A DNA stretch of 64,000 nt from Chloroflexota bacterium (GTDB lineage Bacteria; Chloroflexota; Dormibacteria; CF-121). Both the position numbers and the translations under genes were made by a program. The notes below the pieces were generated by a model. That model was not told the DNA's origin, did no database searches, and saw only the letters and a program-made list of their open reading frames with translations. Below are positions 8,268 to 8,842 of this stretch, in pieces. Position 1 is the first letter of the stretch; each line of letters opens with the position of its first letter. The stretch is from assembly GCA_034666565.1 (NCBI GenBank), contig JAXDLN010000036.1, forward strand, positions 32,079-96,078, written 5' to 3'.

Positions 8268-8543
8268 ATGAAGAGACATCGCCGCAAATCCGGCCAGGCA
8301 TTGATCGAATATGCCTTCCTCATGATCTTGCTGGCGACCGTCGCTATCGCGGTGATCATCATGGCCGGCACCCAGCTCACAGGCATCTACAACGACGTGA
8401 GTTATGAATTCACCCACCTGACCGACTCGGCCACGCTCGCGCCGGACGGCGTCACCACCGTCAGCCCGGGCGTTACGCCATCTTCCTCATGTCCTTCCGG
8501 TCAGACGCTGCAGCTGTTGGGGCACAAGTGGAAATGCAAATAG
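8268..8543 (+). CDS. Flp-family (type IVb / Tad) prepilin-like protein with C-terminal Cys-containing extension
   Basis: MKRHRRKSG|QALIEYAFLMILLATVAIAVII is the Flp class-III signal motif (G/xxIEY plus hydrophobic helix). At 91 aa it is longer than typical Flp and ends SCPSGQTLQLLGHKWKCK. Confidence 0.65.
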   Translation: MKRHRRKSGQALIEYAFLMILLATVAIAVIIMAGTQLTGIYNDVSYEFTHLTDSATLAPDGVTTVSPGVTPSSSCPSGQTLQLLGHKWKCK

Positions 8544-8842
8544 CGCCGGTTGAGCTGCGACACCCGGCCGGCCCGCGCGGGCTGAACCGGCTGCTGGCCA
8601 ACCGACAGCTCTGGAAGAACGCGATCTACTCGATCGCGATGATCACCTACCTGTGCTCGTTCCTCTTCTTCGGCCTGGCAATCGCCGAGGTCCGCTCATC
8701 GGGCGGGACCATGACCGCGCTCATCGACCTGATCGTGGCGCTCTACTTCCTGGTGCAGGTGATCTTCCTGTTCGTGCTGTCCGGCGTCGTCGAACGTCGG
8801 CGCGCGAATCAGCCGATCGACTTCCCCGATCGGCGCAACTAG
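8534..8842 (+). CDS. small 2-TM membrane protein, translationally coupled to Flp-like gene
   Basis: ATG 8534 overlaps the pilin stop (aaATGcaaaTAG). Protein MQIAPVELRHP...IYSIAMITYLCSFLFFGLAIAEV...LIDLIVALYFLVQVIFLFVLSG has two hydrophobic helices and no recognisable domain. Confidence 0.45.
   Translation: MQIAPVELRHPAGPRGLNRLLANRQLWKNAIYSIAMITYLCSFLFFGLAIAEVRSSGGTMTALIDLIVALYFLVQVIFLFVLSGVVERRRANQPIDFPDRRN

Follow-up and report, generated by a model that had tools for sequence, protein, structure and literature searches.

Two Flp-type prepilin-like proteins with a conserved two-cysteine tail, one of them encoded with an overlapping two-transmembrane partner, in a Dormibacterota-type genome

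What is the role of a small protein that begins like a Flp-type prepilin, ends in a two-cysteine tail, and is encoded away from any pilus assembly genes? This question is raised by a 64,000-nucleotide stretch of a Chloroflexota bacterium assembly (GCA_034666565.1, contig JAXDLN010000036.1, positions 32,079 to 96,078), referred to here as the window. It corresponds to approximately positions 772,846-836,845 of an 866,548-bp JGI soil-metagenome contig and has a G+C content of 66%. Close relatives are labeled Candidatus Dormibacteraeota or Dormiibacterota (a phylum in NCBI taxonomy). The window encodes two such proteins, copy 1 (8268..8543, +, stop codon included) and copy 2 (15441..15683, -). 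Copy 1 is followed by an overlapping gene for a small protein with two transmembrane (2-TM) segments. We lean, with modest confidence, toward the reading that both copies are prepilins of the Flp/Tad (type IVc) class that carry a lineage-specific hairpin cap, probably stapled by a disulfide, with their machinery encoded elsewhere and a dedicated in-membrane partner for copy 1.

The copy 1 gene encodes a 91-amino-acid (aa) protein. Its translation starts with MKRHRRKSG, then QALIEYAFLMILLATVAIAVIIMAG, and ends in SCPSGQTLQLLGHKWKCK; everything after the leader reads QALIEYAFLMILLATVAIAVIIMAGTQLTGIYNDVSYEFTHLTDSATLAPDGVTTVSPGVTPSSSCPSGQTLQLLGHKWKCK. It is an exact match of NCBI QOH92_926, and its JGI product name is "Flp pilus assembly pilin Flp." A 104-aa form with an extended N terminus, called in many homologs, is impossible here because an in-frame TAA (8262-8264) lies three bases 5' of the ATG. 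The predicted leader is M1-G9 (8268..8294, +), with predicted cleavage between G9 and Q10. The processing site, G/QALIEY, is followed by a hydrophobic helix, and the hydrophobic window covers approximately residues 9-41 on the Kyte-Doolittle scale. At the C terminus is a C-x14-C module that includes GHKWKC (C75-x14-C90, CPSGQTLQLLGHKWKC; 8490..8537, +). A preliminary description of the window had noted an open reading frame (ORF) with a Flp-type signal and a two-cysteine tail, and the ORF and its translation bear this out.

The paralog that the preliminary description placed at 15441..15683 is also present, as an 80-aa ORF that starts at MIKRS and has no partner gene. Its sequence is MIKRSRTGRRG/QGMVEFALILVLVACVAIVTITLTGNQLFLTFQDIEEAVANPGDAGATSAYTCPDGTTAVLHGHKFHCH, with the tail CPDGTTAVLHGHKFHCH. 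The leader is M1-G11, the predicted cleavage is between G11 and Q12 (site G/QGMVEF), the hydrophobic window is residues 10-42, and the C-terminal module is C64-x14-C79 (CPDGTTAVLHGHKFHC; 15447..15494, -). Public gene calls start copy 2 at M14, just past the predicted cleavage site (67 aa, MVEF...; L001 17174..17377). Many database entries of this family are therefore 67-aa truncations from which the leader has been dropped. A six-frame motif scan of the window found only these two copies. Copy 2 is separated from ftsH by a tRNA-Ala(CGC) gene on the other strand (15342..15417, +), 23 nt away from the copy 2 stop codon.

After the predicted processing, copy 1 would have 82 aa and copy 2 would have 69 aa. 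Flp prepilins are 50-80 aa (PMC4322843). The two proteins, at 91 and 80 aa before processing, do have the tail extension of the preliminary description, but it is smaller than was stated there. Beyond the helix, both have a net negative charge (-1 in copy 1 and -4 in copy 2), and the copy 1 tail ends in a basic stretch (GHKWKCK; in homologs, RGHKWKCR).

We examined conservation of the two proteins in a 5.8-billion-protein collection, with 158 relatives found for copy 1 and 174 for copy 2. Among the best 120 relatives listed for each copy, identity to the query was 61-100%. A joint alignment was made of 66 sequences, 28 of them diverse copy 1-type members and 38 copy 2-type. Identity between the two groups is only ~35%, and eight residues are invariant across both: G9, Q10, E14, L21, G34, C75, H86, and C90. 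Another four (G78, L83, G85, and K87) are conserved in at least 90% of the sequences. The tail common to both families is C-P-x-G-x4-L-x-G-H-K-[WYF]-x-C, with a constant 14-residue spacing of the two cysteines. An hhalign comparison of the copy 1 family with the copy 2 family gave 99.4% probability (E=2e-21) over the full length, tail included. With this number of relatives, and with eight invariant residues at such low identity between the families, the feature is not a product of chance. The alignment and the distribution described below also support the earlier suggestion of a dedicated family with a conserved C...GHK[WYF]xC motif, and they restrict that family to Dormibacterota.

The invariant cysteine pair and its fixed x14 spacing make a disulfide plausible, C75-C90 in copy 1 and C64-C79 in copy 2. 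Within the copy 2 family (n=53 sequences), C64, H73, G74, H75, H78, and C79 are invariant. Its tail is therefore rich in histidine (H73, H75, and H78, with C64 and C79), whereas the copy 1 tail keeps one histidine. A metal-binding site in the copy 2 tail is conceivable from these residues, as an alternative or an addition to the disulfide. The glutamine at position +1 of the predicted mature protein (8295..8297 in copy 1; 15648..15650 in copy 2) is invariant in 66/66 sequences; an N-terminal Gln can cyclise to pyroglutamate.

The relationship to Flp pilins is clear at the level of the family. At E<=0.01, the Pfam Flp_Fap model (PF04964) matched 42/66 aligned members (best E, 2.6e-9). Precomputed PF04964 matches are also listed for many copy 2 orthologs, together with the product name "Flp family type IVb pilin" from NCBI. 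The joint profile also matched the solved Tad pilins of Caulobacter (PilA; 8U2B/8U1K) at E ~2e-4, with E14 aligned to the mature Glu5. This alignment of the invariant Glu leads to the predicted cleavage after G9 in copy 1 and after G11 in copy 2. A G/XXXXE[YF] site in the PilA register, the 42 Flp_Fap matches, and the hhalign result that joins the two families all uphold the Flp-type N terminus of the preliminary description. The strongest argument for a pilin, which comes from the sequence comparison, is that the cleavage-site Gly and the Glu5 predicted to be embedded in the membrane are absolutely conserved across two diverged paralog families. A charged Glu retained in a membrane helix is hard to explain other than by pilin-type assembly.

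The preliminary description also proposed that these are tip or minor pilins, and this has no support. The TadE model (PF07811) had no match in copy 1, only a weak one in copy 2 (E=0.091; 13.3 bits versus a cut-off of 22.9), and matched 1/66 members at E<=0.01. The TadE/F/G minor pilins have approximately 150 aa or more and a β-stranded globular domain after α1 (PMC4322843, PMC12075869). At 80-91 aa, the two copies are far smaller, and only a two-stranded hairpin is predicted in them. In Myxococcus, a Flp gene located by searching the whole genome and not among the known kil genes (KilP) proved to encode the major pilin (PMC12075869).

AlphaFold2 models of copy 1 and copy 2 were built from separate alignments. 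In copy 1, a continuous α1 helix is predicted from residue 8 to residue 49 (8289..8414, +; predicted local distance difference test [pLDDT] score 90-98), in line with the Kyte-Doolittle profile. A less regular stretch follows, and then a β-hairpin (strands 81-84/87-90). The mean pLDDT is 79.8, and that of the tail is ~71-74. The best model of copy 2 has a helix at residues 7-51 and a hairpin at 71-73/76-78, with a mean pLDDT of 85.1 and 87-91 in the tail; in the other four models, the mean is 69-77. A C-terminal head group beyond the helix, as had been suggested, is therefore predicted in both copies, and neither is predicted to be all-helical in the manner of Flp/Fap proteins.

The tail module has no relative in Pfam, NCBIfam, or the PDB, and no family of Flp pilins with C-terminal disulfides is described in the literature that was searched. 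In an exhaustive search of 1.84 billion cluster representatives, the joint profile matched 9,933 proteins at E<=0.001. The best 150 of these are mostly Flp sized and match only the N-terminal half (approximately positions 5-55 of the profile). About a dozen representatives match through the tail, including variants such as C-x-DGTAAVF-RHGKY-RC. We also compared the 115 nearest Flp-like representatives with a single motif, whose median mature length is 45 aa. At least two cysteines follow the helix in 31 of them, in a sample that is biased because the query profile itself has Cys columns, and the GHK-type module occurs in 5. A C-terminal Cys pair is thus not rare on such a scaffold, but the GHK-type module is rare and lineage restricted.

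Other arrangements of Flp-like sequence were encountered in the same searches. Eight representatives (P0247, P0250, P0256, P0258, P0259, P0265, P0277, and P0290) have two to five tandem Flp-like units (GQ..VEYA plus helix) in one polypeptide; one of them, of 418 aa, has five. Two Dormibacterota metagenome-assembled genomes (MAGs) have tandem Flp-like genes of 56 and 63 aa that end in MCNYHVGC(G) (L028 9828..10165 and L030 8329..8666). These genes are 3' of large genes (793 and 330 aa), and there are no tad genes within 10 kb.

The 102-aa protein encoded directly after copy 1 (8534..8842, +) had been described as a two-helix membrane protein, and we find it to be a real, conserved partner. Its hydropathy profile has two hydrophobic segments (approximately residues 30-53 and 58-88), it has 452 relatives, and its position is syntenic. 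JGI and NCBI gene calls use the same start. All relatives are annotated as "hypothetical," none has a Pfam domain, and those with a named source come from Dormibacterota or "Chloroflexi" MAGs. Pfam and NCBIfam searches with the partner itself returned only subthreshold noise (DUF5373, DUF2663, and T6SS_Burk_ExIF). The partner gene is directly 3' of the copy 1 ortholog in L005, L006, L008-L013, L017, and L078. Both termini are basic, and by the positive-inside rule both are probably cytoplasmic, in a predicted hairpin topology. The external loop would then have only ~10 residues, and so any contact with the pilin must be intramembrane.

The partner gene overlaps the copy 1 gene by 10 nt, counting the stop codon. 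An overlap with the end of the pilin gene had been noted before and stands. However, the start is not inside the stop codon as was stated, because the ATG at 8534 lies within the W-K-C-K codons (TGG AAA TGC AAA TAG), 7 nt ahead of the TAG. In 8/10 distinct orthologous loci, the last Cys follows a Lys encoded by AAA, and the partner ATG arises from this codon choice in the +2 frame. By comparison, only 16% of the lysines in 11 long window genes are encoded by AAA. A naive binomial calculation for this use of AAA gives P ~1e-5, which is overstated because the loci are related. In L012 the codon is AAG, and the partner uses its own ATG in another frame. The partner ATG is therefore kept within the W-K-C codons against codon bias and is supplied separately where AAG is used, and this supports selected translational coupling of the pilin and its partner. 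Conversely, the overlapping partner start could be the sole constraint on the conserved GHKW codons. We considered and rejected this, because copy 2, which has no partner, keeps GHK[YF]HC equally.

To establish where the family occurs, we used one genome per GTDB species, and 73 loci were returned. Full-length members are found only in Dormibacterota-type MAGs, whereas other phyla match the N-terminal Flp part only. The Dormibacterota loci share a syntenic block: ComEC-ComEA-LeuRS-HIT-copy 1-2TM-thiolase-(redoxin)-Lon-FtsH-(copy 2)-MFS. Only some of the genomes have copy 2, always without a partner gene. A divergent genome, GCA_030157205.1 (L078), keeps the slot, the partner, and a variant tail. 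Across the orthologous loci L005-L013, with divergent L078 left out, identity to the window genes is 63-81% for copy 1, 73-85% for the partner, 57-90% for HIT, 60-75% for ComEA and ComEC, and 78-97% for thiolase, Lon, and FtsH. The window holds a lineage-specific variant of the known Flp pilin class that is real and conserved, together with an uncharacterised partner.

If the two copies are pilins, their hydrophobic helix would insert the prepilin into the membrane, and a prepilin peptidase of the A24 family would cut behind the invariant Gly, between G9 and Q10 in copy 1 and between G11 and Q12 in copy 2. The mature 82- and 69-aa subunits might then polymerise through the α1 helix and the invariant Glu5 into a Tad-like filament or a short pseudopilus, driven by an ATPase and a platform protein that would be encoded elsewhere in the genome. 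The extra 30-45 residues could decorate the filament surface and would end in the β-hairpin, closed by the invariant Cys pair. This hairpin would display an invariant His, a conserved Lys, and an aromatic residue, a binding surface absent from ordinary all-helical Flp pilins. The translationally coupled 2-TM protein may act as the in-membrane partner of copy 1, either as a chaperone or dock for the prepilin pool or as a stoichiometric assembly factor.

Several observations weigh against this reading. Copy 1 itself had no match to Flp_Fap even at E<=10, and the match of copy 2 (E=2e-4; 21.5 bits) is below the 32.2-bit gathering threshold. A check with this model, proposed in the preliminary description, therefore fails for the individual proteins, but the homology is clear for the family. 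The copy 1 family profile alone aligned with PilA in the same register at only E=0.92, and so the Flp status of copy 1 rests on transitivity through copy 2. No T2SSE, T2SSF, or Peptidase_A24 domain is in the Pfam annotation of ~72 kb, a region that extends beyond the window by ~1.7 kb at the start and ~6 kb at the end. We also scanned for motifs of CpaF/TadA-type ATPases and A24 peptidases in all 82 loci, 17 of which are Dormibacterota-type. There were none in the window and none in any of the 17 (0/17), whereas in other phyla the same scans placed a CpaF-type ATPase (23 loci) or an A24-type peptidase (17 loci) beside flp. The earlier statement that no tad or cpa genes are adjacent thus extends to the whole of this region. 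Nothing relevant on pili, Tad, or Flp in Dormibacterota was found in the literature that was searched. The missing linked machinery is the weak point of the pilin reading. In addition, copy 1 is conserved across genera to about the same degree as HIT and ComEA/ComEC and has a fixed slot among housekeeping genes, which is unusual for a surface-exposed major pilin. Finally, one clade (L017, P0262, and P0263) keeps the partner but not the Cys module. In the copy 1 slot of L017 (920..1165) is an 81-aa gene that ends in HVTHLSDQNWQDQHQVGQ and has no cysteine. The partner is retained there (79% identity), and 9 kb away is a copy 2-type gene whose module is complete.

The main rival would explain these observations by exaptation: a Flp fold that forms no filament and serves instead as a bitopic membrane protein (N terminus in, Cys-loop ectodomain out) in a housekeeping complex with the 2-TM protein. 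The Flp-like N terminus would be only a membrane anchor or an interaction helix. We regard this as possible, although on the unlikely side. It would fit the lack of Tad or A24 genes near any Dormibacterota Flp-like gene, unlike in other phyla, and the fixed synteny among LeuRS, HIT, thiolase, Lon, and FtsH with conservation like that of the neighbors. It would also fit an obligate and even more conserved partner that has a very short external loop and is retained in L017, where the Cys module has been lost. However, a plain anchor needs neither a cleavage-site Gly nor a Glu at +5, and both are invariant in the two paralog families. Copy 2 shares the architecture without having a partner. Furthermore, pilin and peptidase genes can sit apart from the machinery in other lineages (PMC12075869, PMC4322843), so the absence of Tad neighbors is weak evidence.

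A special case of the pilin reading is a competence pseudopilus, in which the proteins would work with ComEA and ComEC in DNA uptake and the hairpin, with its basic, His-Lys-aromatic character, would bind DNA. ComEC (DUF4131 plus Competence; 2131..4335, -) and ComEA (SLBB plus HHH_3; 4362..4955, -) are encoded just 3.3 kb upstream of copy 1 and are syntenic across Dormibacterota, with the order ComEC-ComEA-LeuRS-HIT-pilin kept in L006, L007, L010, L011, and L013. The basic end of the copy 1 tail would suit such a role, and there is a precedent in Micrococcus luteus, which has comEA/comEC and needs Flp pili for transformation (PMC4322843). Even so, we think this role improbable. The two com genes are on the opposite strand, with LeuRS, a tRNA, and HIT between, and no sign of a common operon or of common regulation was found. 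The net negative charge beyond the helix in both copies also counts against it. A comEA-comEC-leuS neighborhood is also found in actinobacterial genomes, and so the arrangement could be old synteny unrelated to the pilin as well as a hint of DNA uptake. A small Cys-containing peptide gene followed by an overlapping gene for a small membrane protein is also the classic layout of a toxin and its immunity protein. Here, the helix and Cys loop of a secreted, bacteriocin-like peptide would attack membranes, and the 2-TM protein would protect the producer. This is very improbable. The pair is vertically inherited, holds one chromosomal position phylum-wide, and evolves slowly, and is thus neither sporadic nor hypervariable. 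It has no adjacent C39-peptidase ABC exporter or modification enzymes, its leader is of the Flp type and not a double-glycine leader, and copy 2 has no "immunity" gene. A broader possibility, which we hold only tentatively and consider rather doubtful, is that a Flp-derived, Cys-His-Cys-capped protein and its 2-TM partner form a phylum-wide, vertically inherited module that works without a canonical linked Tad machine. It would be either a minimal DNA-uptake filament associated with ComEA/ComEC or a membrane complex that is not a filament, and the His-rich tail of copy 2 might bind metal.

If we return to the reading of the two copies as prepilins, the closest known proteins are the Flp/Tad (type IVc) major pilins, such as Caulobacter crescentus PilA (8U2B/8U1K) and Aggregatibacter Flp1 (PF04964). 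Tad pilins have 40-60 residues, are all-helical, and have no C-terminal domain, and they have been described as minimal type IV pilins (PMC10710030). The two copies share with them a short basic leader, the G/XXXXE[YF] site, ~20-30 hydrophobic residues, and a continuous α1 helix without Pro22. They differ in their mature lengths of 82 and 69 aa, in the predicted β-hairpin with an invariant Cys pair, in the invariant Gln at +1, and, for copy 1, in not being recognised by PF04964. They are also outside any tad locus, whereas Flp genes are "almost always" inside one (PMC4322843).

Myxococcus xanthus KilP (mxan_5121; 97 aa) is a precedent for unlinked pilin genes. It is the major Kil pilin, but it was identified only by a genome-wide Flp search and was not among the known kil genes (PMC12075869). 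As with the two copies, its prepilin is above the 50-80 aa norm and has a G/XXXXE site, and KilP is conserved within its order. However, it is predicted to be fully α-helical, no Cys-loop tail or 2-TM partner has been described for it, and its Kil machinery is known (PMC12075869). The Flp protein of M. luteus (Mlut_18170) is from another Terrabacteria lineage in which comEA/comEC and Flp-type pilins are found together. M. luteus has no other known competence genes, and its tadV peptidase gene is unlinked from the other tad genes (PMC4322843). Its flp differs in being inside a tadA-B-C-flp-tadE/F-G cluster and in encoding a 77-aa prepilin (processed tagged form, ~5.6 kDa) for which no C-terminal Cys module has been reported (PMC4322843).

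Two other systems are more distant. The disulfide-bonded C-terminal D-region is a feature of T4a pilins. Similarly, the C-terminal Cys pair of the two copies could staple a surface loop, and type IVa/IVb pilins also have a class III signal with Glu5. These pilins have 140-200 aa and an α-β globular domain (PMC10710030), whereas no such domain is predicted for the two copies and there was no fold match. The resemblance is an analogy, not membership. In Geobacter sulfurreducens, a short pilin gene (PilA-N) is also followed by a second small gene (PilA-C) that is needed with it (PMC10710030). The product of the second gene is soluble and globular and coats the helix, a role that the partner of copy 1, as a 2-TM hairpin with only ~10 external residues, cannot fill.

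A Cys-stapled hairpin would be one way for a helix-only pilin to gain a surface module, and the two copies offer a compact structural test case. They would be a first lead on surface appendages, possibly for DNA uptake, in Dormibacterota, a phylum that is abundant in soil but uncultured. No counterpart of the phylum-specific, tightly coupled 2-TM partner is described for Tad systems, and this protein would add a new accessory component to them if it proves to act as a chaperone of the pilin or in its assembly. Should Tad machinery be missing from the genomes altogether, the family would be a pilin fold reused for something else.

Other features of the window were also examined. A ParA/MinD-like gene (57111..57920, +) has matches to CbiA, AAA_31, and MipZ. 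It is preceded by a gene for an unannotated 238-aa protein and followed by an unannotated 104-aa ORF. AAA_31 is also the fold of TadZ/CpaE, and we considered this gene as a TadZ/CpaE candidate, but it was set aside because it has no ATPase, platform, or peptidase neighbors. A consensus scan for promoters and terminators found nothing, and in an Rfam E-value scan of 7000..18000 the two tRNAs were the only matches, so that no riboswitch turned up ahead of copy 1 or copy 2.

A Redoxin/AhpC-TSA gene with a thioredoxin fold (10318..10896, -) lies between the two pilin-like genes. It encodes a lipoprotein-like signal (..LLLLAGC) and a WCGPC motif. Most syntenic loci have this gene, but L078 lacks it. 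Its product could act, as an extracytoplasmic thiol-disulfide oxidoreductase, on the Cys pair of the pilin-like proteins. The pilin-like genes also flank the Lon-FtsH block. The window as a whole has an unusually dense proteostasis set, with two Lon proteases, FtsH, ClpX, ClpP, and trigger factor (10899..13286, -; 38958..41396, -; 41407..43445, -). A terpenoid cluster at approximately 17315..24300 encodes a squalene-hopene-cyclase-like protein, a terpene synthase, a GGDEF-HD protein, an FMN-dependent dehydrogenase, and a polyprenyl synthetase.

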